Positions 5,059 to 61,547 of a DNA stretch of 64,000 nt are shown piece after piece. The stretch covers positions 21,599-85,598 of the forward strand of contig JAFGDO010000032.1 of NCBI GenBank assembly GCA_016932045.1, written 5' to 3'. The translations under genes were made by a program, and so were the position numbers. Position 1 is the stretch's first letter. Each line of letters begins with the position of its first letter. The notes beneath the pieces were generated by a model, which was given only the letters and a program-made list of their open reading frames with translations, searched no databases and was not told the DNA's origin. The DNA comes from Candidatus Dojkabacteria bacterium (GTDB lineage: Bacteria; Patescibacteriota; Dojkabacteria; JAHIVN01).

Positions 5059-5442
5059 TCACTTCCTCCTCAAATTCCTTACCAACGTTATTGCAATTAT
5101 TAGGGCGAATACAGCAAGAACTGCTCCTACTGCTATTATTAGCTGAGGATTCTGCTTAAATACCGTCAGATTAACCTCTTTATTTACTAATGGTATTGTA
5201 AGCATTAAAGGCGAATCTGTGTCGTAAGTTTCAATTTTCAGGCTCTTGAGAACCAGAGAAAATGTCTCATCAACAGGCTTTCTGTCTGGATTGAGAAGGT
5301 AACTAATGGTAGAGGGAATCAAGATAAACAACCCCAGTATACAAGCAATTACAAAAAGTTGTTTGCAATTCACCTGGATAGACGGACGAAAAGAAACTTT
5401 TTTCTTGGAAGGTTTTTTATCTTTATCGGGCATGTAAATCAA
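5059..5442 (-). CDS. hypothetical membrane protein (two predicted TM segments)
   Basis: 127 aa ORF with a Lys-rich N-terminus and hydrophobic stretches (LFVIACILGLFILIP; IIAVGAVLAVFALIIAI). Confidence 0.4.
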   Translation of the reverse strand: MIYMPDKDKKPSKKKVSFRPSIQVNCKQLFVIACILGLFILIPSTISYLLNPDRKPVDETFSLVLKSLKIETYDTDSPLMLTIPLVNKEVNLTVFKQNPQLIIAVGAVLAVFALIIAITLVRNLRRK

Positions 5443-5611
5443 TAATCAATTAACAATGATCAACCTTCAATTATCCAATTATTCAAAGATACAAAGGTTC
5501 AATGATATAAAGATAGAAGGTATGAAATAACCATCCGACTATCCAGCTATCTAGCTATTTTTGTTTAGTACTTATTAAGAATAGTTTTATCTATTTCTTT
5601 CCATCTCTCCC

Positions 5612-6679
5612 TTATAGACAGTAGTCCTGATTCTTATTTATATAACATCTCTGATTGTTTGTCTGTTCTTCGAGAGTCTTCGCATAGTGTACGTTGCCTT
5701 CCTCATCATGAAGGTAATAAAAGTAATCATTTGCCTTGGGATTTAATACTGCCTTTATCGAATCCAGCCTTGGATTGCATATAGGTGTTGGAATAAGCCC
5801 AACATTTTTGTATGTATTGTAAGGAGACTCTTTCTCTTTCAACTCCTTCGTTACAACAGCCTCCCAGTCTTTGAGCTCGTAAAGCAACGTCGCATCTGCT
5901 TGCAAGAGTCTCACACCATCCATATCACCATTCAATCTTCTCTGCAATATATCCGATATCATATATCTCTCCTCGCTCGTTCGTGCCTCCCTTTCTATGA
6001 TTGATGCAAGTATTATAACCTCATAGGCACTAAGATTTTTATGAGACTCTAAATTTATTTTCTCCGACTTTATTTTATTTTCAAATGTTATAAGCAAGAA
6101 TTTAACTAGCTCTTCAGCCGTTATATCTTTTTTCACATTGTATGTATCTGGAAATAGAAAGCCTTCTATACTCTTTCCTTCTGACTTATAATCCAGTATT
6201 TCGACATCAAGATCATAATCGTCAGGATTCCGACAAATGTCCAAAAAGGTCTCCTTATCAAACTTGGTATTATCTTCTTTTAAGAAATACTCGTCCAATA
6301 TTTCTGCTATTTCATCGTATCTCAAACCTTCCTGTATAGTAATCCAAACATCATTTCCCGCTGCTCTCTGGATAAATTCTGCAACTTCGATTACCGTAAG
6401 GTTTTGAGGTATCTTAAATTTACCAGCCTGTATCTTAGGAGCAAGTTGATTAATTTTTATATAAAAATAGAATACATCAGAACTCTTTATGACACCTGCT
6501 GTTTGTAGTTTAACGGCTATATCTTTAACAGCCTCTCCCTGTTCGATCTCAACTTCTACAATACTAGAAGAATCACTTGTCTGAGTGTTTATCTGTTTGT
6601 TGTACCAAACATAGGCCCCCCCAGCAAGAATTGCAGCAATTACAATTAAAACTACTATTATTATAAATATCTTTTTCAT
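5612..6679 (-). CDS. mltG: endolytic murein transglycosylase MltG (YceG-like)
   Basis: 355 aa with an N-terminal TM segment plus motifs GFLFPDTY, ASIIEREA, LQADATLLY and PYNTY..GLIPTPICNP, all characteristic of the YceG/MltG family. Confidence 0.85.
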   Translation of the reverse strand: MKKIFIIIVVLIVIAAILAGGAYVWYNKQINTQTSDSSSIVEVEIEQGEAVKDIAVKLQTAGVIKSSDVFYFYIKINQLAPKIQAGKFKIPQNLTVIEVAEFIQRAAGNDVWITIQEGLRYDEIAEILDEYFLKEDNTKFDKETFLDICRNPDDYDLDVEILDYKSEGKSIEGFLFPDTYNVKKDITAEELVKFLLITFENKIKSEKINLESHKNLSAYEVIILASIIEREARTSEERYMISDILQRRLNGDMDGVRLLQADATLLYELKDWEAVVTKELKEKESPYNTYKNVGLIPTPICNPRLDSIKAVLNPKANDYFYYLHDEEGNVHYAKTLEEQTNNQRCYINKNQDYCL

Positions 6680-6752
6680 GCTTTTTTGTTCGTCGAATTT
6701 AAATTTTATAGGCCGATTTTATTATTAACTGAAGTCTTAGTCAATAGAACCC

Positions 6753-7214
6753 TCATTTTAGGAACGCGCTATATTGTGGCAAAAAAGATGTACTTACCCT
6801 TGCATCCTCTTTCCTTATTTCTCTAGAATCCAAATACTCCTGTAATATTATTCTAGCTGATTCACTATCAATATTTTTGGGGTTATTTCTTTTCCTCCTT
6901 TCATATTGCCTAGCCTGTACTGTTGAGAAAGCTTCGTTCCAGAACTCAACTTCTGCTCCATTTGTTGACTCAAGAGTTCTTGCAAAGTATCTTGTTTGAA
7001 TTGATTGCTGAGTTTCTTCATTTTTCGAGCCGAGAGGCAGACCAACAACCACAATATCAATATTTTGTGTTCTCACAATCCTATGTATCTTTGAGACTGC
7101 ATCTGCAAGCGATTTCACTTTTAGAGCTGAAATAGCCATAGCTATTATGCCGGTTTCATCAGATATTGCTAAACCTATTCTTTTTTCTCCATAATCTATT
7201 CCCAAATATTTCAT
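6753..7214 (-). CDS. ruvX: Holliday-junction resolvase-like nuclease RuvX/YqgF
   Basis: 153 aa with the N-terminal GIDYGEKRIGLAISD motif and IDIVVVGLP, typical of YqgF/RuvX. Confidence 0.85.
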   Translation of the reverse strand: MKYLGIDYGEKRIGLAISDETGIIAMAISALKVKSLADAVSKIHRIVRTQNIDIVVVGLPLGSKNEETQQSIQTRYFARTLESTNGAEVEFWNEAFSTVQARQYERRKRNNPKNIDSESARIILQEYLDSREIRKEDARVSTSFLPQYSAFLK

Positions 7215-9126: not shown

Positions 9127-9364
9127 ATGTATAATATTCAATCTACAATCGTCAATTCTCGATTATCCAATTACTCAGAAAATACTGAAATCAATTAATA
9201 ATCACAGCATTAAAATTAACAATATGGCAGTATAATAATATAGCCCATGACGCTTAACCTTTAGCTATCAGCTTTTATGCCTGTCATTTTTTCTCGGGTT
9301 ATAACCCTTGACTTACTGACTAGTAATAATAAAATATAGTATTAATCCTTTAACAAATTAAATT

Positions 9365-11715: not shown

Positions 11716-11761
11716 GTATCTCTTCACTTTGATAAATATAGATTTATGCTATAATACAGCA

Positions 11762-12172
11762 AGATTAATATTAAAAGCATCCGACCTCAAAATCATTGGG
11801 GAAAGCTGCAGGAAGAACCGATTCATTGTTCAGTACTTGTACTGAGTGAGTCCTGAGTTTATCGAAGGACGAGTCGAAGTAGAACCTGCCGGGTAAGCCC
11901 GTTAAGGCTGCCGTGCCCTGCTTGTCCTGATCCTGAATTTAATGAAGGAGAAGGAAGCGAATCCCGCTTAGCCAGCCTAGTCGGCAGACAGGCGGGAGGA
12001 GTCAAAGGGAAGAGCGATTAATATGATTAAACTATCGATCCGATAAGATTAATCAATATAATCGAATTTAAGGTGGTACCACCTGAATTCAACTAATGAT
12101 TATTAATTAGGTAAAAAGGTCCTTGTATTAATATCAATATTGGTATTAGTACAAGGACTTTTTTTACTGTAT
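11762..12172 (+). promoter_or_regulatory. putative T-box riboswitch leader of ileS. It contains a GC-rich core shared with the serS leader
   Basis: Long untranslated leader with a possible promoter (CTTTGA/TTGATA ... TATAAT at 11750-11755). It is GC-rich and structured inside an AT-rich genome. It carries AATTTAAGGTGGTACCACC at 12066-12083, matching the T-box consensus AANNNGGGUGGNACC. Immediately after comes the intrinsic terminator hairpin ggtccttgta...tacaaggac plus a T7 run (about 12118-12165). It lies upstream of an aminoacyl-tRNA synthetase gene. Confidence 0.5.
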
Positions 12173-12339
12173 GACTAAATTTCCGAAACACAATAAATGC
12201 TATACAAACCATTAGATAAAAAAGGTCAAATATTCGTTGAAATTGATGGCGAAAATTAAAAAGTATAAAAAGTTTAAACCAATCTCAAAGATGTTAGAGT
12301 AAATAAGTGAAACTTAATTAAATTATAAAATTCTTAAAA

Positions 12340-15261
12340 ATGTTCAAGATACAAAATTATAAATCAGTTTCAGAACGAGAAGACAAAACAACTATATGGT
12401 GGAAACGTGAAAAAATGTTTGAGAGATCAATTGATGCTCGACCAGAAAATAATAGATACTCATTCCTCGATGGCCCTCCATTTGTAACTGGAATACCGCA
12501 CTATGCATCTCTTCTTCCAAGAATGGCAAAAGATGTTATCCCAAGATTTAAAACAATGCAAGGATACAAGGTAAGACATGTCTGGGGATGGGATTGTCAC
12601 GGTTTACCAATAGAAGAAAAAACCGAAAAAAAAGTAGGCCTGAAGAATAGAAGGGAAATTGAGACGTATGGCATTAACAAGTTTATTGAAGCATGCAGAA
12701 AATACGTTGAGGAAACATCCAGTGAATGGGGATGGTATGTTGATAAGATAGCCGAATGGGTAAATCTGAAAGATGCCTATCGTACAATGGATACAGACTA
12801 CATGGAATCTGTGCTTTGGGTATTCAAAACTCTTTACGACAAGGGCCTCATTTATGAAGGAGTTAAAACACTGCTTTACTGCACAAGATGTGGCACACCC
12901 GTATCCAAATTTGAAATAGCTATGGACAATAGCTATGCTGACATGGAGGATCCTGCCGTAACGGTAGAATTTCCCATAACAACATCAGGAAATTTTAAAG
13001 GTGCACAAATACTTGCATGGACCACGACCCCATGGACTTTACCTTCAAACAGAGCTCTCGTCATTGATCCAAAAGAAACCTATGTCCAATTTTCAGGGAA
13101 CGTCCCTGGAAATACATATATTGTCGCTAAAAAAAGATTAAAGAAAATTATGAGGAAGGATAAATATAAAGTGATCAGAGAATTCAAGGGGAAGGAATTA
13201 TTGGGATTAGAATACGAAGCACCTTTTGATTATTTCCCTCCGAATAAAAATGACTTTAAAGTATATGCATACAAAGGCATGGTAACAATGGAAGAGGGAA
13301 CCGGAGTGGTTCATTCTGCTCCTGGATTTGGAGAAATTGATACAGAGATGGGAAAGCACTATAAACTCACTACGATGTTCTCTGTTGATGATGAGGGTAA
13401 GTTTATTGATAAAGTCAGAGATTATAAAGGAATGTATGTCAAGGATGCAGATAAGAAAATCATCGGAGATCTCGAAAAGGAAGATAGGCTTTTTAAAGTG
13501 GAAAAAATCGTGCACAGCTACCCTTATTGCTGGAGATGCCAGACACCACTCATTCAAAGAGCCCAGAAGTCATGGTTTATAAATGTTCAAACTCTGAAGC
13601 CGTTGCTTCTTAGACAAGCTAAAAAGATAAATTGGGTACCAGCTAAATTTGCCAAGCGATTTGAGAATAATATAAAAGATGCACCCGACTGGTGTATCTC
13701 AAGAACACGTTACTGGGCAACTGCAATGCCTGTATGGAAGTGCGACAAGTGTAAGGAAATAGAAGTCTTTGGATCAATAAAAGAAATTGAAAACCGCTCA
13801 AGACAAAAAGTGAAAAACCTGCATAGGGATGGGGTTGATCCGATCGCATTTCCTTGTAAGAAATGTACAGGGATCATGAAAAGAATTCCTGAAGTCTTAG
13901 ACTCCTGGATGGATGCAGGATCCATGCCATATGGTCAGATCCACTATCCATTTGAGAATGAAGACTTGTTTAAAAAAACATTCCCTGCCGACTACATTAT
14001 CGAGTATGTTGCTCAAATACGCGCTTGGTTTTACGTAATGCACGTACTGTCAAATGCACTTTTAGGGGCAAATAGCTTTAAAAACGTCGTTGTAACGGGG
14101 GTTTTATGGGGAACAGATGGGAGAAAAATGAGTAAAAGCTTTGGGAACTATCCGGATCCAAAAGCAACACTAGAAAAGTACGGAGGGGACGCCATGAGAC
14201 TTTACTTCATGTCAAGTCCAATCATGCTCGGAGACGACATGAATTTCAATGAGCAGGACCTGAGAAATCAAGTCTCGACAGTAATTTTCCCTTTCTACAA
14301 CAGCTTTAAATACTTTGTTACCTACGCAAATCTTCACAAGTTTAAGCCAAATAGTGGACTAGTAGCAGGACTCAGTAACTCAAAACCTAAAAGCTTCTTA
14401 GATAAATGGATTCTTGTCCGTTTAAAGAAATTTCACCAAGAAATTGCAGGCTATCTTGAAAAGTACGAAATGCCTCCTGCCACAAGAACTGTTGCACCAT
14501 TTATCAACGACCTTTCAACTTGGTATATAAGACGAAGCAGAAACAGATTTGTAGAAGGAGACAAAGATGCACTGCAAACACTCTATTACGTACTCGTGCA
14601 AACAGCAAAGATAACTGCGCCGATTATACCTTTTGTTTCCGAAGAGGTTTATGGAAGACTCATCGCAGACCTAAATTTAAAAGCTAAAGAATCAGTACAT
14701 CTGTGTGACTATCCGGAGATCAAAAAGCTGACAGTCTCAGAAAAGAATCTTCTGGATGAGATGCAACTTGCTAGAGATCTTGCCTCACTTGGTCAAGCAA
14801 CTCGAGTTGATGCGAGGATAAAGGTTCGTCAGCCGCTGGAAAGTCTAAGGGTAAAAGGAAAAAGGTTAAAGGTTTGGATGGTTGATATCTTAAAGGAGGA
14901 ATTAAATGTAAAAAAAGTTGAAAACGCAAGAAGCTTGAGGAAAACAAAGGGCTGGAGTGTACAAGAAAGCAAGGGGTTAAAGGTTGCTCTTGACACCACT
15001 ATTACGGATGAGCTTCGACAAGAAGGACTGGTTAGGGAGCTTGTAAGAGCGATTCAAGACACACGAAAGAAATCGGGCTTTAAGCAAGAGGACAGAGTAG
15101 AGGTCTCTATTTCAACAGATAGTGAAGAAATACGAGAAGTCATCAAGAAATGGAATAAAGACATTCTCCAACAGACAAATAGCTTAAAAGTTGCTTTAGG
15201 ACAAGGTCAAAAAGAGGCAAAAGTAAATGACCACAAGGTAAGTATAAGCATAAATAAGTAA
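12340..15261 (+). CDS. ileS: isoleucyl-tRNA synthetase
   Basis: 973 aa class I synthetase with PPFVTGIPHYA (HIGH region), KMSKS (KMSKSFGNYPDP), an editing-domain-sized insertion, and Zn-finger-like CWRCQ/CDKCK/CKKC motifs. The alternative start M at 12415 cannot be excluded. Confidence 0.93.
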   Translation: MFKIQNYKSVSEREDKTTIWWKREKMFERSIDARPENNRYSFLDGPPFVTGIPHYASLLPRMAKDVIPRFKTMQGYKVRHVWGWDCHGLPIEEKTEKKVGLKNRREIETYGINKFIEACRKYVEETSSEWGWYVDKIAEWVNLKDAYRTMDTDYMESVLWVFKTLYDKGLIYEGVKTLLYCTRCGTPVSKFEIAMDNSYADMEDPAVTVEFPITTSGNFKGAQILAWTTTPWTLPSNRALVIDPKETYVQFSGNVPGNTYIVAKKRLKKIMRKDKYKVIREFKGKELLGLEYEAPFDYFPPNKNDFKVYAYKGMVTMEEGTGVVHSAPGFGEIDTEMGKHYKLTTMFSVDDEGKFIDKVRDYKGMYVKDADKKIIGDLEKEDRLFKVEKIVHSYPYCWRCQTPLIQRAQKSWFINVQTLKPLLLRQAKKINWVPAKFAKRFENNIKDAPDWCISRTRYWATAMPVWKCDKCKEIEVFGSIKEIENRSRQKVKNLHRDGVDPIAFPCKKCTGIMKRIPEVLDSWMDAGSMPYGQIHYPFENEDLFKKTFPADYIIEYVAQIRAWFYVMHVLSNALLGANSFKNVVVTGVLWGTDGRKMSKSFGNYPDPKATLEKYGGDAMRLYFMSSPIMLGDDMNFNEQDLRNQVSTVIFPFYNSFKYFVTYANLHKFKPNSGLVAGLSNSKPKSFLDKWILVRLKKFHQEIAGYLEKYEMPPATRTVAPFINDLSTWYIRRSRNRFVEGDKDALQTLYYVLVQTAKITAPIIPFVSEEVYGRLIADLNLKAKESVHLCDYPEIKKLTVSEKNLLDEMQLARDLASLGQATRVDARIKVRQPLESLRVKGKRLKVWMVDILKEELNVKKVENARSLRKTKGWSVQESKGLKVALDTTITDELRQEGLVRELVRAIQDTRKKSGFKQEDRVEVSISTDSEEIREVIKKWNKDILQQTNSLKVALGQGQKEAKVNDHKVSISINK

Positions 15262-15685: not shown

Positions 15686-15894
15686 CTGAATCTTTTGCTA
15701 TAGTAAAACCATAGCAGTTTCCTTTTTATAAATCTATAAAGTCTTTTCAGCATTTCTAGAGAGCTCAGAATTAAATTCCTATAAATTTAACGCTACACTC
15801 TAAATAAGGTAACAGAAATTGCTTTTTCTCCCTTTTTTGTGGTAAAAACGGATATAATTAAATATTTATTCTGAGGAATAGTAGGTTTTTTCAG

Positions 15895-16175
15895 GTCTTA
15901 AGCAAACCTTGCAGCTGAAAGAAGGCAGATGTGCAAAAAACCAAACGCGCTTCAGTGAAACACTACAGAGAACTCCCTTCGGGACAGTACTTGTAGGGAC
16001 ACAATTTATTGTGTCCACAAGGAATAATTAGTAATAATTATTCACAAATGAGTGGTACCACGAGGGTAAACCAGATCAAAGATCGGTCCACCCTAAAAAG
16101 CTCTCGTCTCATAACAATCCAGCCAAAGGCTGACAAACAATTGTTAAGAGACGAGAGTTTTTTGTTTTGGAAGGA
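15895..16175 (+). promoter_or_regulatory. putative T-box riboswitch leader of argS
   Basis: Stem-I-like region gcagctgaaagaagg...; CGC (an Arg codon) in a candidate specifier context; and agtacttgtag, which also occurs in the ileS leader. The T-box motif AAATGAGTGGTACCACGAGGG sits at about 16047-16067. The terminator hairpin gctctcgtctc (16100-16110) / gagacgagag (16148-16157) is followed by TTTTTT. The ORF-track start at 16009 lies inside this leader and is rejected. Confidence 0.6.
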
Positions 16176-16212: not shown

Positions 16213-18783
16213 ATGAAATTTAAAGTTTCACCGGAAATATTTGAAAAGTACCCGAATCTCATAGAGGCTATCGTCATTCTTAAAAACATTGATAATACTG
16301 TGGACGGCAAAGAGATAATTGAAATATTAAGGAACGAAGAAGAAAAAAAGAAGAATACATTATCAACAATTCAGCTGTCTAGCCATCCGGCTATCCAACC
16401 ATGGCGAGACGCATTCAAATCTTTCGGCTCTAAACCGAACAAATTCTCCTCATCAGTTGAAGCATTGTTAAAGAGGGTAGTTAAGGGGAACGAATTGCCA
16501 GATATAAACCCCCTTGTAAATCTCTACAACTACTGCTCTGTTAAGCACATCCTACCTTTCGGAGGCGAGGATTTCTCAGGAGTTTATGGAAATATGGAGC
16601 TCAAACATTGCGCTGGTGACGAGGAGTTTATTCCTATCATGTCAAAAGAGAACGAACCTCCAGATAAAGGTGAGGTCTCCTGGCTGGATGATCAAGGGGT
16701 AACTTGTAGAAAGTGGAACTGGAGACAGTGTGATAGAACAAAAGTTACAGAAAAAACAAAAGAAGGGTACTTCATTATTGATGGAATTCCCCCCGCCAAG
16801 AAAGAAGATATCAATGAAGCAGCTGAAGATTTCATCAAGCTGGCTAAGAAATATTTAAATGCTCGTGGAGAAATATACTGGCTGGATAGGAAAAATCCGG
16901 AGGTTGAAGTTAACATAAAAACCAAAGTAGCTGAAAGCTCTCAGCTGCCAGCTACCAACCTAAGAAAAGAAATGATAAAAACTCAAAAGATAAATAAGTC
17001 AACAAAAGATTTCTACAAAAAGAATCCGCTTGAAGATATGGTTGATGAAAGTCTAGTAAAGTACAAAGTAAGAGACCTTGTCTGGGAAGCAATAAAAAAA
17101 GCTAAGTATGGCAAGTACTTAAAGAAAGAAGATATAAAAGTCGAACATCCGCAGAATGAAGAATTCGGTGATTTTTCAACAAACGTGGCAATGGTTCTAG
17201 CGGGTAAATTAAAGAAAAAGCCAAACTTCGTTGCCGACGTGATTCAAGAACACATACCATCAAGAAACGTTATTCAGCATGTCTCGCTCAAAGAAGCTTT
17301 TATAAACTTCCATCTAAATCCAAAGTGGCTTGCAAATGAGATAAACAAAATACTTAAAGAAAAAGACACATACGGGGACTCATTGAAATCAAGAGAATTT
17401 AAGCTAATTGTTGAATTTGGACAGCCAAACACTCATAAGATGCCTCATATAGGTCACTTATTTTCATATATGTATGGAGAAAGTATAGCGAGATTAACAA
17501 AAGCAATGGGCCTTGAGATTTTTAGAGCTAACTATCAAGGAGATGTAGGTCCTCATGTTGCAAAATGTATCTGGGCTTTTATGAAGAACAAACCAGGTAT
17601 TCCAAAAACTCTAAGAGAAAAAGCAGGGCTATTACAAAAGATGTATCAGGAAGGTGCCACCGCTTATAAAGAAGATGAAAAAGCTAAAGAGGACATAGAT
17701 AGAATTAATAAAATGATTTATCTAAAGGACAAAAAGATCGATGCTATATACAAAGAGACAAGACAGTGGAGCGTAGACTTTTATGAAGAATTCGAAAAAA
17801 GCATCGGTGTACACTACGATAGATACTATTTTGAATCGGAAGTCGCAGAACTTGGGGAAAAAATCGTTAAGGACAATATCGGCAAAGTTTTCAAAGAGAG
17901 CAAAGGAGCGGTTATATTTGAAGGAAGCAAATTTGGTCTTCATGATAGGGTATTTATCACCAAAAGAGGTACGCCAACATACGAAGCAAAGGACATGGGG
18001 CTTCAAACTATAAAGTATAAGGAGTGGCCTTTTGATTATATGATGATATTTACAGCCCATGAACAAAGTGAATATTTTAAAGTGGTTATCAAAGCTCTTG
18101 AAGAGCTTAACCCAGTATTTCAAGATAGAATAAGACACTACGGTTTTGGAATGGTAAATCTAAAAAGTGGAAAAATGTCTTCAAGAACTGGCAATATTAT
18201 TACAGGAATAGGTCTTGTTGAACAAGCGATAGAAGCTGTAAAAAAATTAATCAAAGATAAAAACGATTTATCAGAAAAGGAGAAAGAAAAAATAGCTGAA
18301 AAAGTTGCTATAGCAGCAATAAAATACTCTTTCTTAAAAAATAATCCTTTTCAAGACTCAGTTTTTGATTTTGAAGAGAGCATAAACTTTGAAGGGAACT
18401 CTGGCCCATACCTTCAATATACTTATGCCAGGGCAAAATCAATTCTCAAGGAAATCGAACAATCTACAATCTACAATCTACCTTCCTCGCCGGCAGGCGG
18501 GCAATCTTCGAAAGATTTTAACACTGAAGAACTTCTAATTCTAAGAACATTATACAAGTTCCCTGAAGTCGTCTTCGAATCGGGCATGAATCTTGCCCCT
18601 AACCTACTCTGCTCCTATCTATTCGACCTAGCTCAGAAGTTCAATCTGTTTTACAAGAAACACAAAGTATTAAAAGCTAAAAACGAAGAGCGAAAAGCAA
18701 GACTCGCAATTACTGCAGCTACAGCACAGGTGATAAAGAATGGCCTTGGTTTGCTCGGGATAGAAGCACTTGAGAAAATGTAG
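16213..18783 (+). CDS. argS: arginyl-tRNA synthetase with an N-terminal B3/4-domain extension of about 290 aa
   Basis: Preferred start MKFKVSPEIF at 16213, after the T-box terminator. N-terminal region PWRDAFKSFGSKPNKFSSSVEALLKRVVKGNELPDINPLVNLYNYCSVKHILPFGGEDF...CRKWNWRQCDRTKVTEKTKEGYFIIDG matches the B3/4 domain (PheT editing-like, Pfam B3_4). The ArgS body follows, with the HIGH motif PNTHKMPHIGHL and the C-terminal DALR anticodon-binding region. One continuous ORF. Confidence 0.88.
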   Translation: MKFKVSPEIFEKYPNLIEAIVILKNIDNTVDGKEIIEILRNEEEKKKNTLSTIQLSSHPAIQPWRDAFKSFGSKPNKFSSSVEALLKRVVKGNELPDINPLVNLYNYCSVKHILPFGGEDFSGVYGNMELKHCAGDEEFIPIMSKENEPPDKGEVSWLDDQGVTCRKWNWRQCDRTKVTEKTKEGYFIIDGIPPAKKEDINEAAEDFIKLAKKYLNARGEIYWLDRKNPEVEVNIKTKVAESSQLPATNLRKEMIKTQKINKSTKDFYKKNPLEDMVDESLVKYKVRDLVWEAIKKAKYGKYLKKEDIKVEHPQNEEFGDFSTNVAMVLAGKLKKKPNFVADVIQEHIPSRNVIQHVSLKEAFINFHLNPKWLANEINKILKEKDTYGDSLKSREFKLIVEFGQPNTHKMPHIGHLFSYMYGESIARLTKAMGLEIFRANYQGDVGPHVAKCIWAFMKNKPGIPKTLREKAGLLQKMYQEGATAYKEDEKAKEDIDRINKMIYLKDKKIDAIYKETRQWSVDFYEEFEKSIGVHYDRYYFESEVAELGEKIVKDNIGKVFKESKGAVIFEGSKFGLHDRVFITKRGTPTYEAKDMGLQTIKYKEWPFDYMMIFTAHEQSEYFKVVIKALEELNPVFQDRIRHYGFGMVNLKSGKMSSRTGNIITGIGLVEQAIEAVKKLIKDKNDLSEKEKEKIAEKVAIAAIKYSFLKNNPFQDSVFDFEESINFEGNSGPYLQYTYARAKSILKEIEQSTIYNLPSSPAGGQSSKDFNTEELLILRTLYKFPEVVFESGMNLAPNLLCSYLFDLAQKFNLFYKKHKVLKAKNEERKARLAITAATAQVIKNGLGLLGIEALEKM

Positions 18784-18826: not shown

Positions 18827-19198
18827 GTGATATTTAGTCTTGAAAAAATGAGACATACATGTCACAATAGCATTAGTTACTATCTCTTTGAAGAAAAAGT
18901 TTACATTGATAACAAAGCCGAAAGAGAGCTTAGAAGGTTCAATACAGAATTAAGAGCTGAATTTAAAGCTCTCATCGATAAATTAGCAAAGGAAGGACAT
19001 CTGAAAATACCTTTTGCCAAGAAAATTGATAAAGAGCTATTTGAAATGAGAGTAAGAATCGAGGGAGCTTGGAGAGGATTTTACTCTTATATTCAAAAAG
19101 ATACAGTAATAATTTTACATTTCTTTCGTAAGAAGTCGCAAAAAACACCTAGAAAGAAAATAAATACAGCAAGAAAAAGGTTAAGATATTACAAGTAA
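18827..19198 (+). CDS. higB: HigB-like toxin (phage Gp49/DUF891 family, RelE/ParE superfamily)
   Basis: 123 aa whose C-terminus LHFFRKKSQKTPRKKINTARKRLRYY matches the DUF891/Gp49 signature (GF.KKTQKTP..EI..A..R...Y), plus an LFEMRV core. Confidence 0.65.
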   Translation: MIFSLEKMRHTCHNSISYYLFEEKVYIDNKAERELRRFNTELRAEFKALIDKLAKEGHLKIPFAKKIDKELFEMRVRIEGAWRGFYSYIQKDTVIILHFFRKKSQKTPRKKINTARKRLRYYK

Positions 19199-19202
19199 AA
19201 GA

Positions 19203-19511
19203 ATGAACTCTAAACTTAAAACAAAACTAAGAAAATACGCAATACCCTACGAGAAAGCTTTTGTCCAGGACATGAAGAAGGCGCAGTTCAGAAGACTTGT
19301 AAGAGCAAAGAAGAGGTACTTTGAAACATTATCTTCTATTAAGAAATTGCGTAAGCAAAAGGGCTTTTCACAGGAAAAGCTTGCTAAACTTGCGGGTCTT
19401 CCACGACGTACCATAGTTCGTATAGAATCGGGTCAAAAGAATACAACTATCGATACCCTCATCAGCATCGCCTCGGCTATGGAGGAGGAGTTGGTAATTA
19501 GGTTGAAATGA
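19203..19511 (+). CDS. higA: HTH XRE-family antitoxin (HigA-like)
   Basis: 102 aa with a classic HTH_XRE, LRKQKGFSQEKLAKLAGLPRRTIVRIESGQKNTTIDTLISIASAM. It begins 4 nt after the toxin stop, in toxin-first HigBA order. Confidence 0.65.
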   Translation: MNSKLKTKLRKYAIPYEKAFVQDMKKAQFRRLVRAKKRYFETLSSIKKLRKQKGFSQEKLAKLAGLPRRTIVRIESGQKNTTIDTLISIASAMEEELVIRLK

Positions 19512-22833: not shown

Positions 22834-24597
22834 GTGCTAGATCGTCAGCAAAGAATTGCAGTGGAAACAATTCATGGGCCAGTTCTTGTTTGTGCAGGCC
22901 CTGGAAGCGGTAAAACTCGAACGTTGGTTGAGCGTGTCCTACACCTTCTAAGAAAAGGCGTAAAGCCCTCAAATATACTTATACTTGCATTTACAAACAA
23001 AGCGGCAAAGGAAATAAAAGACAGACTAGAGCAAAAAGTACAATCGGAACTCTCTCTTACAATTCAGGTTACTCCTTACACCATTCATTCTCTTTGTTTG
23101 AAAATTCTGAAAAAAGAAGTAGATAAACCATTTCTAATTCTTGATGAACATGATCAACTAAATGTCATTCAATTCTTAAAGAAAAAGTTGAAAGCAAAAG
23201 GCTTCAAGCAGAAAATCCTAAGCTTAATTAGTAATTACAAGAATCAAAGTTTCACCCAACTTCCTCAAGAATCTAAAACACTCTATAAAGAGTATCAAAA
23301 GTATTTGAATAAAAATAACCTATACGACTATGATGACATATTGATCAAAACACTAGAGTTACTTGAGAACAAAGAATTGATAAGAAAAAAATACCAGGAA
23401 ATGTACAAGTATATTCTCGTCGATGAGTATCAGGATATAAATGAGGTCCAAAATAAATTAATCAAGCTTCTTGCTTTGCCACAAAATAATACCTTTGTAA
23501 TAGGTGATGCTGATCAGTCAATCTATAGTTTCCGAGGCGCTAACTTCAAGCTATTTTTAGAATTTAATCAAGAATTTAAAGATGCCAAAACTATAAAATT
23601 AAGAACAAACTACAGATCCACCCCATCTATTGCTAATGCATCTTTAAGTTTAATTCTTCACAATAAAGATAGGCTAAGCAATAACTATAGGTGTTTCACC
23701 GAAATAGATTTTCCTGTCTTCGTATGCAAATGCGGAAATGAAAAAGACGAAGCAAAATTAGTTTCTGATGAAATTGAAAAAATAATTGGAGGGACTACCC
23801 TACTCCACATGGATAGTGACGTTGCAGAACAAAACGAAAACAACGAATACCAGTTCAACGACTTTGCAGTTCTTTATAGGAAGAATTCATTTGCAAAATA
23901 TTTGGAGCAGGAATTTCTCCATAAAGGAATTCCTTACCAGATCATTGGAATAAACAGCTTTTGGAATCTTCCTGAAATTCGCGATGTTATTTCAGTTATT
24001 AAGTATCTCGTTCACAAAAATAACTTTGTTTCAAAATTTCTAAATCCTCCAAATATTGATTTAGACCAAATAAAAAACATAACTGATGGTGGTCAGATTG
24101 ATGTAGAAGAATTTGTCGAGGCAAGCGGGTTAAAGACACATTATCGGGATGACAAAGAAGCACTAGAAAACTTAAGTACACTTATAGATCTTTTAGAAGA
24201 ATACAAATGCAAGAATCTCGAGGAATTGTCCTCTAGAATTGCATTGCAATCACGGGAAACTTATATAGATGAACGTGCAAATTGTGTAAAGCTTTTGACA
24301 TTTCACCAGGCAAAAGGACTAGAATTTGCAAATGTTTTTATAGCTGGTTGCGAAGAAGGTAATACACCGCTTCTTAAACATGACGCAAATATAGAAGAAG
24401 AGAGACGCTTGTTTTATGTCGGCATGACAAGAGCAAAGAGCCGTCTATACTTATCATACACACAAAACCGTTTAATTTGGGGTAAAAGACAGAAACAGAA
24501 ACCCTCAAGATTTTTGAAAGAGATTAACCAAGAATATGTGCATAAGAAAGAATTTATAAAAAGGAGAAAGAAGAAGGAACAAACTACTCTCTTTTAA
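22834..24597 (+). CDS. UvrD/PcrA-family (superfamily 1) DNA helicase, short form
   Basis: Walker A AGPGSGKTRTLVERV, motif Ia ILAFTNKAAKE, motif II ILVDEYQD, motif VI VGMTRAK. The ORF track uses a GTG start at 22834. Confidence 0.85.
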   Translation: MLDRQQRIAVETIHGPVLVCAGPGSGKTRTLVERVLHLLRKGVKPSNILILAFTNKAAKEIKDRLEQKVQSELSLTIQVTPYTIHSLCLKILKKEVDKPFLILDEHDQLNVIQFLKKKLKAKGFKQKILSLISNYKNQSFTQLPQESKTLYKEYQKYLNKNNLYDYDDILIKTLELLENKELIRKKYQEMYKYILVDEYQDINEVQNKLIKLLALPQNNTFVIGDADQSIYSFRGANFKLFLEFNQEFKDAKTIKLRTNYRSTPSIANASLSLILHNKDRLSNNYRCFTEIDFPVFVCKCGNEKDEAKLVSDEIEKIIGGTTLLHMDSDVAEQNENNEYQFNDFAVLYRKNSFAKYLEQEFLHKGIPYQIIGINSFWNLPEIRDVISVIKYLVHKNNFVSKFLNPPNIDLDQIKNITDGGQIDVEEFVEASGLKTHYRDDKEALENLSTLIDLLEEYKCKNLEELSSRIALQSRETYIDERANCVKLLTFHQAKGLEFANVFIAGCEEGNTPLLKHDANIEEERRLFYVGMTRAKSRLYLSYTQNRLIWGKRQKQKPSRFLKEINQEYVHKKEFIKRRKKKEQTTLF

Positions 24598-25262: not shown

Positions 25263-25547
25263 ATTTCAGAAGTGACAATTAATGTTGAGACAATATTACA
25301 TGAATAGGAGCATAAAGTGAACTATACCATAATATAGCAATCTACAATCCTCAATTTTCAATCTACACTCTTCAACCTGCTTGCTATCCTCTACTTGTCC
25401 TGAACATAGTCGAAGGATCTGGCTATCGGTCTGTCTAGCCACTTATCAATCGTCAATTAAAAACAAGATTATCCGACTATGCCCCACCATAAGCGAATTC
25501 GCTCTACTCTATATTTTGTGGTAAAATCTTAAATCGGAATTACAACC

Positions 25548-27137
25548 ATGCCAAGAAAAACAAAAAAACAGCCAAAAGCTGTAAAAACCAAAAGTGAATA
25601 TGAGATTGCAAGACCGCCGGTAGTCACTATGCTTGGACACGTTGATCACGGTAAGACTTCCATACTCGACGCTATAAGAGGGACAAAGGTTCAAGCCTGT
25701 GAAGCTGGAGGTATAACTCAAAGCGTACGGGCTCATAAGATAAAGTATAAAACCGAAAAAGGAAATGAATATCAGATGACATTTATCGATACACCTGGAC
25801 ATAAAGCCTTTACTGAAATGCGGTCCCGAGGTGCACATGTTACAGATATAGCAGTCCTTGTCGTAGCCGTTGATGATGGAGTTAAGCCTCAAACAAAGGA
25901 AGCCGTTAAATTTGCAAAAGAAGCCAACGTTCCGTTTGTTGTCGCTCTCAATAAGGTAGATATTAAGGGAACAGATAAGAATAAAATTAAAAGGGATCTT
26001 GCAAATTTGGGCGTTCAGGCAGAAGAACTTGGCGGGGATGTAATGTTTATTGAGACATCAGCTAAAAAGCGAACAGGTCTTGAAAACCTACTTGAGGCAG
26101 TCCTGCTTACTGCAGAATTGGCAAATCTAAAGACGATAAAGCCAAAACAGGGTAAGGCTGAGGTAGTCGTACTTGAGTCAACAACCGATAAATCACTAGG
26201 AACTATTTCTTTTTGTCTTGTTAAAGCAGGTGAGATAAAAGTTGGCGATTTTGTTGCGTCAGGTGACGAGTGCTCAAAGATCCGCTCTATACTAGATGAA
26301 AATCTCTGCAACCAAACCGGAGCCAAAACTTCAGATCCTGTCTGGTTAACTGGAATAGACAAAGAGATACCTATAGGACAAACTCTTTATCTTTATCCAA
26401 GTATTTCTGATATCAAGGTAGAAACCAAAAAAATCAAAAAAAAGGAAGCAGAGAAAGAAGAAGATGAAGAATTGGATGAGGAAATCCTCGCAAATTTACT
26501 TACAGCAAGGGAGGAAGAAGGCAAAGCTGAACTGAATATAATCCTAAAATCCGAAAGTTGTGGAACTTTAGAAGTAGCTTCAAAAGAATTAGAGAAGCTT
26601 TCTACAGATGAAACAAGAATAAACATCATTGACCAAGGAACCGGAGATATAAATGAAGATGACATTATAAAAGCTAAAACATCAAAGGGGATAGTTATTG
26701 GCTTTAGATCAAAACTATCAAAGAAAGACGAGAGGATAGCAAGAATTGAAAAAGTACTTGTAAGGAACTATGAAATCATCTATGAACTTTTGGATGAAGT
26801 AGCTGAGGTTATTGAAAGTATGCGCGAGCCGGTGGAAAAAGAAGTGGAAGTCGCAAGAGCGCAAGTAAAAAAAGTCTTTAAATTATCAAACGGTGAGATA
26901 GTTGCAGGTTGTAAAGTAACAAAAGGAATAGTACTTAAGGGTTATCAGTGTTATGTGGAACGACCGTCTCTCAAAAAGGACAAAAGAATTGGTGAGGGTA
27001 AAATTACTTCACTAAAGTATCAAAAGGAAGAAATCCGAGAGGCCGGGAAAGGAACCGAGTGCGGAATTCTTCTCTCACCCCAGGTAGATATACAAAAGGA
27101 CGATGAGGTTATCTGCTTTAAGATTGAAAGGGAATAA
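25548..27137 (+). CDS. infB: translation initiation factor IF-2, short form lacking the long N-terminal region
   Basis: G-domain [28 protein letters not shown]; C-terminal beta-barrel domains; 529 aa. Confidence 0.93.
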
Positions 27138-34894: not shown

Positions 34895-35097
34895 CAAAAG
34901 TAATAGGCAAAAGGTATAAGGTAAAAAGTAACCATCCAACCATTTAATTATTCACTACTTTACGACTTCACTATTCAATACTAGTCTGTTCCACTCTTTT
35001 TCTGCTTCCCTGAGTCTACCAAGGGGTTTGCTCTCTCCCATTTGCTATCATTCTCATTCTCATCTACAATTCCACTGATACTAATTACACAAAGTGA

Positions 35098-60955: not shown

Positions 60956-61159
60956 GTTAATTTAATTAATAATTTAGAATTAAGAATGAATAACAAGACT
61001 ATCTAACTATCCAGCTATCCGACCGTTCAGCCATCAATAATACTCAATTTTCAATCTATTTTTCCTGAGCTCTTGACATGAGCTTGTCGAATGTTGCCGA
61101 AGAACAATCTTCAACATACCTTATGATAATTTAAAGCACTGTCTTTCTCCTTCCATAAT

Positions 61160-61450
61160 AACACAAAAACCCTTGTCAAAATACCGATATCCGATATTTA
61201 AACAAGGGTTCTTCGATTTACTCAGAACGGTGCCACCTTTATCTTGATTGTTTAATCGCTCTTCCCTTCGACTCCTCCCGCCTGTCTGCCGACTAGGCTG
61301 GCTAAGCGGGATTCGCTCAGGGCACAGCAGCTATCTCGGGCTTACCCGTTGACTTTCATCAATTACACTTAGTAGTAAATATTACCAAGCTTGAGTGGAT
61401 TCAAGAGAACTTGACTACCTAATCACAGTAAAAAGGCTTTCTGAAAGTGA
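61160..61450 (-). promoter_or_regulatory. putative T-box riboswitch leader of serS; shares the GC-rich core with the ileS leader
   Basis: On the minus strand: the conserved core GGGTAAGCCCG...CTGCTGTGCCCTG-AGCGAATCCCGCTTAGCCAGCCTAGTCGGCAGACAGGCGGGAGGAGTCGAAGGGAAGAGCGATTAA; then AAAGGTGGCACCG (plus 61228-61243), a T-box-like motif; then terminator hairpin aacccttgt...acaaggg + TTTTT (plus 61165-61210). It lies about 190 nt upstream of the serS start. Confidence 0.45.
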
Positions 61451-61547
61451 AGTTCAATTTACTAGCTCATTTAAGAATATTTAATTATAATGCTATTATA
61501 ACAAACCTGTAATTAAATAAACAATTTAATTAAACTATTGTTTCCTT

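Follow-up and report, generated by a model that had tools for sequence, protein, structure and literature searches.

We analyzed a 64,000-nucleotide window of DNA from Candidatus Dojkabacteria, within the Patescibacteria or Candidate Phyla Radiation (CPR), in which the aminoacyl-tRNA synthetase (aaRS) genes are ileS, argS, and serS. All three genes are very probably preceded by tRNA-sensing T-box riboswitches that control synthetase synthesis by transcription attenuation, as judged from leader sequences, predicted folds, and orthologous leaders. T-boxes are a textbook example of RNA-RNA sensing, usually described from Firmicutes; offshoots are known in Actinobacteria, Chloroflexi, and Deinococcus-Thermus. 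The argS and serS leaders are predicted to be ordinary Class I T-boxes and new members of the family. The ileS leader appears to be a variant, in which a Class III-like decoding domain is joined to an intrinsic terminator and which carries unusual insertions. A preliminary description of this DNA had proposed antiterminator/terminator leaders of the T-box type upstream of the three genes. This proposal is borne out by the arrangement of helix A1, a UGGNACC bulge, and helix A2 overlapping a stronger terminator, and by the covariation of these helices.

Each leader of the window contains a 7-nucleotide (nt) UGGNACC bulge between helices A1 (3 to 4 base pairs, bp) and A2 (4 to 7 bp). The 3′ strands of A1 and A2 double as the 5′ strand of the terminator, with overlaps of 8 to 10 nt. 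We compared these leaders with eight orthologous ones from related genomes, namely serS L003, L005, and L028, ileS L006, L018, and L034, and argS L030 and L034. By computation and inspection, the antiterminator and terminator overlap in 11/11 leaders, with varying helix sequences. Constrained folds gave −4.7 to −12.6 kcal/mol for the antiterminators of the window and −24.7 to −33.5 kcal/mol for the terminators. The TBDB preprint (10.1101/2020.06.17.157016) describes this asymmetry, a weaker antiterminator and a stronger terminator, for thousands of T-boxes. ViennaRNA folds were used for the terminators; a simple scan missed those of argS and serS because of its rule on loop size, the argS loop exceeding 8 nt. 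The terminators with their U-tracts lie 50 to 205 nt upstream of the start codons and thus cannot sequester the ribosome-binding site. The motifs listed in the preliminary description were all found in place, AATTTAAGGTGGTACCACC at 12064-12082 (ileS), AAATGAGTGGTACCACGAGGG at 16046-16066 (argS), and AAAGGTGGCACCG at 61240-61228 on the minus strand (serS), but the GGTGG core assigned to all three does not apply to argS, where the core is AGTGGTACC. The claim that a hairpin with a U-tract follows immediately on the motif was right about the strong hairpin and U-tract in all three leaders and loose about "immediately", since in ileS and argS a loop of 32 nt lies between the T-box core and the terminator strand.

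All leaders (11/11) have a cognate specifier with a purine after it: AUC-A in the ileS leaders (4/4), CGC-G or CGA-G in the argS leaders (3/3), and UCC-A or UCC-G in the serS leaders (4/4). The window leaders themselves carry AUC, CGC, and UCC, the match to Ile, Arg, and Ser that a T-box assignment had been expected to bring. The variable base of the bulge also follows the amino acid, being U in 4/4 ileS and 3/3 argS leaders and C in 4/4 serS leaders. The usual discriminator bases in bacteria are A73 for tRNA-Ile and tRNA-Arg and G73 for tRNA-Ser. The bulge bases are their complements, and a tRNA-Arg(UCU) gene at L034 has A73. In the alignment of the antiterminators from the 11 leaders, both bases changed in 6 of the 7 pairs. 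Covariation scored 0.925, compared with 0.32 in shuffles, none of 500 reaching 0.925, and every register shift collapsed the signal.

We observed a common anatomy, alternative folds, covariation, and a match between specifier and gene in these leaders. Anatomy and covariation point in turn to tRNA binding, to discrimination between charged and uncharged tRNA, and to a regulatory outcome. During transcription of the leader, the specifier (AUC, CGC, or UCC) would pair with the anticodon of the cognate tRNA; in ileS, Stem II and the Stem IIA/B pseudoknot would back the specifier hairpin. If the tRNA is uncharged, its 3′ NCCA would pair with UGGN of the bulge and steady the weak antiterminator (A1 and A2, aided by the Stem III purine string), so that polymerase would read into the gene. 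With charged tRNA, or with none, the stronger terminator would capture the 3′ strands of A1 and A2, and transcription would stop at the U-tract.

The leaders were aligned by permissive Rfam scans, below the gathering threshold. RF00230 was the top match for each leader, with end-to-end coverage of the model, and also matched 6/8 orthologous leaders at 30 to 83 bits. A scan of the whole window on both strands at E ≤ 5 gave exactly three RF00230 matches, one per aaRS leader, each directly upstream of and in sense with one of the only three aaRS genes. The bare 9-mer GGTGGNACC is unenriched in the window (18 matches at ≤1 mismatch, 15 expected); what exceeds chance is the combination of RF00230 matches with aaRS genes. 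The scores were 42.0 bits for serS, 34.1 bits for argS, and 20.5 bits for ileS, with window-wide E-values of 6.6e-6, 7e-4, and 2.2, and the gathering score is 93. The RF00230 search suggested in the preliminary description thus matched all three leaders permissively, but none reaches gathering. The scores are low because the sequences have diverged and the model must skip large insertions, so that T-box membership is based on the anatomy and the eight orthologous leaders. The failure at the gathering score reflects the reach of the model and not the anatomy of the leaders. Scores below that threshold and an unenriched core could also be expected if the leaders were other attenuators, leader-peptide or protein-mediated, that resemble T-boxes by chance. 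Such a coincidence is barely credible, given 11/11 cognate specifiers, the agreement of the bulge base with the amino acid, and the covariation of A1 and A2 while UGGNACC between them stays invariant, all of which would be unexpected in such attenuators. There is also no plausible sense leader open reading frame (ORF) rich in Ile codons downstream of the ileS promoter, and leader-peptide attenuation was rejected for want of a suitable ORF.

The elements of the ileS leader and its promoter lie at 11729-12168 on the plus strand. A probable promoter at 11729-11755, read from the sequence, consists of TTGATA, a 15-nt spacer, and TATAAT (11750-11755); a consensus promoter scan did not flag it because of the spacer length. 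Stem I (11776-11807) is not the canonical long Stem I but an ultrashort hairpin upstream of the AGTACTTGTA site. Above a lower helix AGC/GCU and an internal loop stands a 6-bp upper helix with an apical pentaloop, CCUCAA[AAUCA]UUGGGG, in which the specifier AUC occupies 11792-11794 and is followed by A. The minimum free energy (MFE) fold recovers this hairpin. The leader has no tRNA-elbow platform. With regard to a K-turn, the internal loop beneath the specifier hairpin of the ileS leaders shows GA in its 5′ strand and AA in its 3′ strand. AUC-A is kept on differing helices in 4/4 ileS leaders. L034 has CUCC[AAUAUCACU]GGAG with a heptaloop above a lower helix GGC/GCC, and L018, from Nomurabacteria, has GAAGGGG[AAAUCA]CCCCUUC with a hexaloop. 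In L006, AUAUCA lies in a side bulge resembling Class IV, a reading from sequence only, as its MFE is no better than that of shuffled sequence (z = 0.20). The lower Stem I helix covaries between AGC/GCU and GGC/GCC.

Downstream of Stem I, Stem II (11809-11855) has the base helix CAGGA/UCCUG, a purine-rich 5′ strand (AGAA), an apical hairpin containing AGUACUUGUAC, and AGUGAG on the 3′ side. We place the latter provisionally at the S-turn position, by analogy with the published description (PMC7583486). The base helix covaries, being CAGGA/UCCUG in the window, AAGA/UCUU in L034 and L006, and UGGG/CCCA in L018. A 29-nt lineage-specific hairpin (11857-11885) lies between Stem II and Stem IIA; it is absent in L034 and L006, where the two stems abut, and the Rfam alignment had forced it into the Stem II position. 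Stem IIA (CGGG-UAAG-CCCG), the F-box CCCGUUA, and the linker strand GGCUG follow at 11890-11910, the IIA/F-box reading CGGGUAAGCCCGUUA. GCU of the GGCUG strand can pair with AGC of the IIA loop, which would form a IIA/B pseudoknot by analogy with the linker of Mycobacterium tuberculosis ileS (PMC11297988). The combination of CG(G/U/C)GUAAGC(C/U)CG with an AGCUG or GGCUG strand is present in six leaders (ileS of the window, L034, and L006; serS of the window, L003, and L005), and the UUA of the F-box, after IIA, is kept in the ileS leaders only. A purine string AAGAG (RRRxG, 12010-12014) precedes Stem III (12015-12064), which is followed by AA at 12065-12066. AAGAG also occurs in serS of the window, L003, and L005 and in ileS of L034. 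The AAGAG-Stem III-AA order of ileS and serS fits the RRRxG...AA purine string described in PMC7583486 at sequence level, and both leaders have CGGGUAAGCCCG followed by the GGCUG or AGCUG strand. The antiterminator (12070-12124, −6.9 kcal/mol in the constrained fold) is composed of A1 AAGG (12070-12073), the bulge UGGUACC (12074-12080), A2 ACCU (12081-12084), a 32-nt loop, and the 3′ strands AGGU (12117-12120) and CCUU (12121-12124). The terminator (12113-12168, −28.9 kcal/mol) is a perfect 24-bp stem with U7, whose 5′ strand overlaps the antiterminator 3′ strand and which ends 172 nt before the start codon.

The plan of the ileS leader invites comparison with the short-Stem-I classes. In Class III T-boxes, Stem I is short, lacks the double T-loop platform (IDTM), and presents the specifier in an apical loop of five or six nucleotides (PMC10482949). 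Binding of tRNA by this class also requires Stem II and the IIA/B pseudoknot. The ileS leader has this short apical-loop Stem I and, at sequence level, Stem II with IIA/B, but not the translational platform. Like the actinobacterial Class III/IV T-boxes of Nocardia farcinica, Mycobacterium tuberculosis, and Actinomyces odontolyticus, it would regulate ileS. It shares with them a short Stem I without IDTM, Stem II with the IIA/B pseudoknot, and AUC-A in an apical loop of 5 to 7 nt (the window, L018, and L034) or in a side bulge (L006). Unlike them, it ends in a U-tract terminator far upstream instead of a Shine-Dalgarno sequestrator, has an extra hairpin after Stem II and a linker hairpin of ~100 nt, and belongs to another phylum. 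In the literature covered, the described T-boxes with an ultrashort or intermediate Stem I are all translational and mainly actinobacterial (PMC7583486, PMC10482949, PMC11297988), a precedent for supposing that the ileS leader also regulates translation and that its hairpin is not decisive. We consider this very improbable, because the competing hairpin is a 24-bp stem with U7 that ends well before the start codon, the corresponding hairpins of L006 and L018, also with a U-tract, end ~30-35 nt before it, and neither alternative helix includes start-proximal sequence. The L034 ileS leader likewise has a U-tract terminator. Since L006, L018, and L034 all end in this way, the coupling of a short Stem I to a terminator is conserved in at least two CPR lineages. 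The ileS leader combines features that the literature covered assigns to separate classes.

The argS leader (elements at 15871-16163, plus strand) has a long Class I Stem I (15871-15955), identified through the Rfam alignment, with the base helix CUGAGG/CUUCAG. AAUAGUA forms the 5′ side of the specifier loop, and the specifier CGC lies at 15946-15948, followed by G. The CGC that the preliminary description had considered a plausible Arg specifier is thus the codon that Rfam places there. L030 also has CGC and L034 has CGA, a synonymous change. In 9 of the 22 Stem I pairs predicted across the three argS leaders, both bases changed. The distal region contains an AAGCAA bulge and a GCAGCUGAAAG loop. 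Stem II (15963-15996), from Rfam alignment and sequence, has a GAGAA/AGUA S-turn, and is followed by a hairpin tentatively assigned to the IIA/B position (15997-16016) and by Stem III (16023-16042); the IIA/B element and the purine string are less clear than in ileS and serS. The antiterminator (16048-16112) folds under constraint at −12.6 kcal/mol. It comprises A1 (AU)GAG, the bulge UGGUACC (16053-16059), A2 ACGAGGG (16060-16066), an A2 loop of 34 nt (32 nt if A2 is read as 8 bp) with an internal hairpin, and the strands CUCUCGU (16101-16107) and CUC(AU). The counterparts are AAG[..]ACGAGA..UCUCGU CUU in L030 and GAG[..]GUGA..UCAC CUC in L034. The terminator spans 16095-16163 (U6, −33.5 kcal/mol).

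At L034, a relative with 75% IleRS identity, the Arg T-box (CGA) is followed by a tRNA-Arg(UCU) gene (6626-6699) and the argS start at 7030 (region 6219-7030). A second tRNA-like sequence at ~6715-6850 is broken by an insertion of ~55 nt, and a GC-rich repeat (...GACCCGCCT.TGGCGGGCAAT...) accompanies both tRNA-like regions. The arrangement might represent an operon of tRNA and argS under T-box control, or else a tRNA with an intron.

The serS leader lies on the minus strand (elements at 61513-61161). Its promoter-like site at 61484-61513 (ATTACA, 18 nt, TATAAT) matches 10/12 consensus positions and is a consensus match only. The long Class I Stem I (61392-61469, from the Rfam alignment) has the base helix UGAG/CUCA, a specifier loop with CUAGUAA on the 5′ side, and UCC at 61399-61397 after GAA and before A. 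GAAUCC[A/G] is constant in 4/4 serS leaders, in which both bases changed in 8 of 12 predicted Stem I pairs. Stem IIA (CGGG-UAAG-CCCG) with the AGCUG linker strand lies at 61328-61348, and the same motif is present in L003 and L005. In the discriminator (61204-61263, constrained fold −4.7 kcal/mol), AAGAG (61263-61259) and Stem III (61257-61246) precede A1 AAGG (61239-61236), the bulge UGGCACC (61235-61229), A2 GUUCU (61228-61224), and the 3′ strands AGAAC (61212-61208) and CCUU (61207-61204). The terminator (61213-61161, −24.7 kcal/mol) has U5 followed by GUGUU and lies ~205 nt before the start codon.

The argS and serS leaders, which fall into Class I in the scheme of PMC10482949, share with Class I transcriptional T-boxes (B. 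subtilis tyrS type, RF00230) the Stem II region, Stem III, the UGGNACC bulge, the overlapping U-tract terminator, and a cognate specifier followed by a purine. At sequence level, their AG bulge and distal loop align to the model positions of the Stem I platform (IDTM) and are conserved in the orthologs. They differ from Class I in scoring 34-42 bits against a gathering score of 93, in showing no clear K-turn, and in their insertions, a structured 32-nt insertion in the A2 loop of argS and a 64-nt linker hairpin in serS. The 'stem Sa' of staphylococcal glyS demonstrates that T-boxes tolerate and can use structured lineage-specific insertions. It sits at helix A2, the same site as the insertions in ileS (32 nt), argS (32-34 nt), and L028 serS (~140 nt, ~320-460).

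Several observations weigh against the T-box interpretation. At the gathering score, Rfam annotates no T-box in the window, only a tRNA, and while the serS and argS matches to RF00230 are significant, the ileS match alone is not. Transcriptional T-boxes generally need the Stem I platform that binds the tRNA elbow (review, PMC7583486), which is absent in the ileS leader. No evident K-turn (GA motif or UGA-GA pair) was found at the Stem I base of the argS leaders, the model positions being deleted in L034. The cognate tRNAs were not found in the window and 18 loci, which contain only tRNAs for Lys, Asn, Leu, and Arg(UCU). The comparison draws on few sequences, with 3-4 leaders per class, and the 98.7% of cells that pair in the antiterminator alignment is an inflated figure, because the strands were picked by eye for complementarity. 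Closely related genomes often have no such leaders, so regulation by them is dispensable in the clade.

Some of these points have a particular bearing on ileS, whose leader could be a decaying relic, in which insertions have disabled tRNA sensing and left a leaky constitutive terminator, next to functional argS and serS leaders. It has the lowest Rfam score, lacks the platform, belongs to a type of leader lost from many related genomes, and carries three insertions that are not in L006 (the 29-nt hairpin, the linker insert of ~100 nt, and the 32-nt A2 loop). Decay nevertheless seems distinctly unlikely. All core elements are intact and in order from the AUC-A loop through the terminator. L034, L006, and the distant L018 retain the plan of a short Stem I with AUC-A while their helices show compensatory changes, which indicates purifying selection on the architecture, and a 24-bp terminator that could not be bypassed would block an essential single-copy gene.

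T-boxes are patchy among the relatives, being present at 3/6 serS, 3/14 ileS, and 2/5 argS loci. A search of genome contigs for IleRS gave 18 loci, several with doubtful taxon labels, and among them T-boxes were found only at L006 and L018. Close relatives of the CPR-type IleRS (48-55% identity) occur at L008-L011, L019, and L020, in metagenome-assembled genomes (MAGs) labelled Gammaproteobacteria or Bathyarchaeia; mis-binning, mis-classification, or horizontal transfer of type-2 ileS may account for these labels.

Between Stem IIA and the beginning of Stem III (~97 nt), the leaders of ileS and serS are almost the same; elsewhere they are unrelated. Within this segment, the inter-domain linker carries an inserted hairpin, flanked by the pseudoknot strand (AGCUG) on one side and the purine string (AAGAG) on the other. 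In ileS the insert spans 11911-12009, has the base CCCU/AGGG (11916-11919 with 12006-12009), and contains a 35-nt side hairpin at ~11921-11955 and a 66-nt core (11956-12021) that is 98% identical to 61252-61317 of serS, with 84% identity in the adjoining 31 nt. The serS copy is 64 nt long (61264-61327, minus strand). In the serS orthologs L003, L005, and L028 the insert is absent and one nucleotide joins AGCUG to AAGAG. L034 ileS has a short 9-bp hairpin within the same flanks, GCUGCCGUGCCCUG...CAGGGAAGAG, and L006 is simpler still. We regard the insert as an enlargement, specific to this lineage, of the linker that connects the decoding domain to the discriminator domain. Most likely it expanded in the ileS lineage and reached the serS leader afterwards as a copy, through recombination within the genome.

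The insert, whether searched alone or in the leader, matches no Rfam family, and a known RNA family or T-box sub-module was rejected as its identity on this ground. Its fold is only weakly better than that of shuffled sequence (z = −1.69). A metagenome scan with the pattern GCGAATCCCN{18,46}GGAGTCRAAGGGA gave no homolog, only four chance matches in GC-rich coding sequence; as the pattern needs exact flanking blocks, diverged relatives would be missed. We found no described precedent for an insertion at the inter-domain linker. The internal loop contains paired T-loop-like pentamers, GCGAA and UCGAA. It is conceivable, though unlikely, that the insert of 60-95 nt is not a neutral expansion but a new functional T-box module, an auxiliary element contacting tRNA or binding protein, that replaces the elbow platform and was spread by recombination. 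If so, the pentamers would let a Class III decoding domain work under the kinetics of transcription termination.

A shared stem-I element, AGTACTTGTA, had also been described for the ileS and argS leaders. It occurs at 11832 and 15986 and as a third exact copy in the infB coding sequence at 26753. This claim did not survive: the sequence lies in Stem II in both leaders, forming the 3′ strand (AGUA S-turn and helix) in argS and the apical hairpin in ileS, and none of 34 related loci keeps it. With a coding-sequence copy, absence from these loci, and differing structural contexts, AGTACTTGTA was rejected as a functional motif.

The T-box elements measure ~390 nt (ileS), ~300 nt (argS), and ~310 nt (serS). 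The full 5′ untranslated regions (UTRs) of ileS (~580 nt) and serS (~520 nt) are longer because unusually long spacers of 172 nt and ~205 nt come after the terminators, at 12169-12339 and 60956-61160. The serS spacer contains AT-rich repeats of 30-45 nt common to the intergenic regions 5441-5551, 9133-9177, 25336-25365, and 34916-34952. These spacers could be secondary promoters or another UTR element. A spacer motif shared between leaders, TTGATGGCKRAA, was not beyond chance and was dropped.

The three genes were identified by Pfam, which revealed no further aaRS among the other large ORFs of the window, and their products are identical to NCBI-annotated proteins of a Candidatus Dojkabacteria MAG. 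The ileS gene (12340-15261, plus strand) encodes a type-2 IleRS with a C-terminal DUF5915 domain and has an NCBI homolog of identical length. The serS gene (60955-59654, minus strand) encodes a protein identical to an NCBI Dojkabacteria SerRS. For argS (16213-18783, plus strand), an ORF start at 16009 lies upstream of the terminator, which would fall inside that ORF. The correction to 16213 made in the preliminary description agrees with the NCBI annotation, as the resulting product has 856 aa and matches the 856-aa NCBI protein with 100% identity and coverage; the closest full-length ArgRS homologs, of 841-895 aa, are in line with this length. The argS product is a fusion in which a B3_4 domain, a fold familiar from the PheRS beta subunit, lies N-terminal to the usual ArgRS domains. 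About half of the top Patescibacteria ArgRS homologs share this fusion; the others do not have it and are ~560-600 aa long. Directly adjoining argS downstream (18827-19511) are a Gp49-like (DUF891) gene and an HTH_3 gene, a pair that looks like a toxin-antitoxin module. A sub-threshold Rfam match to RF03531, a small RNA described inside a Clostridioides difficile helicase gene, was found at 24369-24467 (39 bits, E = 0.008). It lies inside the coding sequence of a UvrD-like helicase (22834-24597) and so probably reflects conservation of the coding sequence.

The taxa named in T-box surveys are Firmicutes, Actinobacteria, Chloroflexi, Deinococcus-Thermus, and a small number of Proteobacteria (PMC2494555; TBDB preprint 10.1101/2020.06.17.157016). 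Unlike the hosts of Class I T-boxes, the CPR/Patescibacteria are absent from these surveys, and our literature search found no paper linking T-boxes to them. The mechanism itself is already known, and the argS and serS leaders would be ordinary family members. Annotation at the Rfam gathering threshold misses the T-boxes of a whole clade. The ileS leader, with a platform-less Stem I and an intrinsic terminator, would be a natural counter-example that makes the kinetic argument of the review, fast capture of tRNA, testable. The scaffold appears modular, in that both the linker and A2 accept insertions, two leaders of one genome have probably exchanged a segment, and sister lineages have often lost the leaders. 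CPR bacteria have very small genomes and few known regulators. T-boxes before every aaRS gene in 64 kb suggest that these organisms sense tRNA charging by RNA only.

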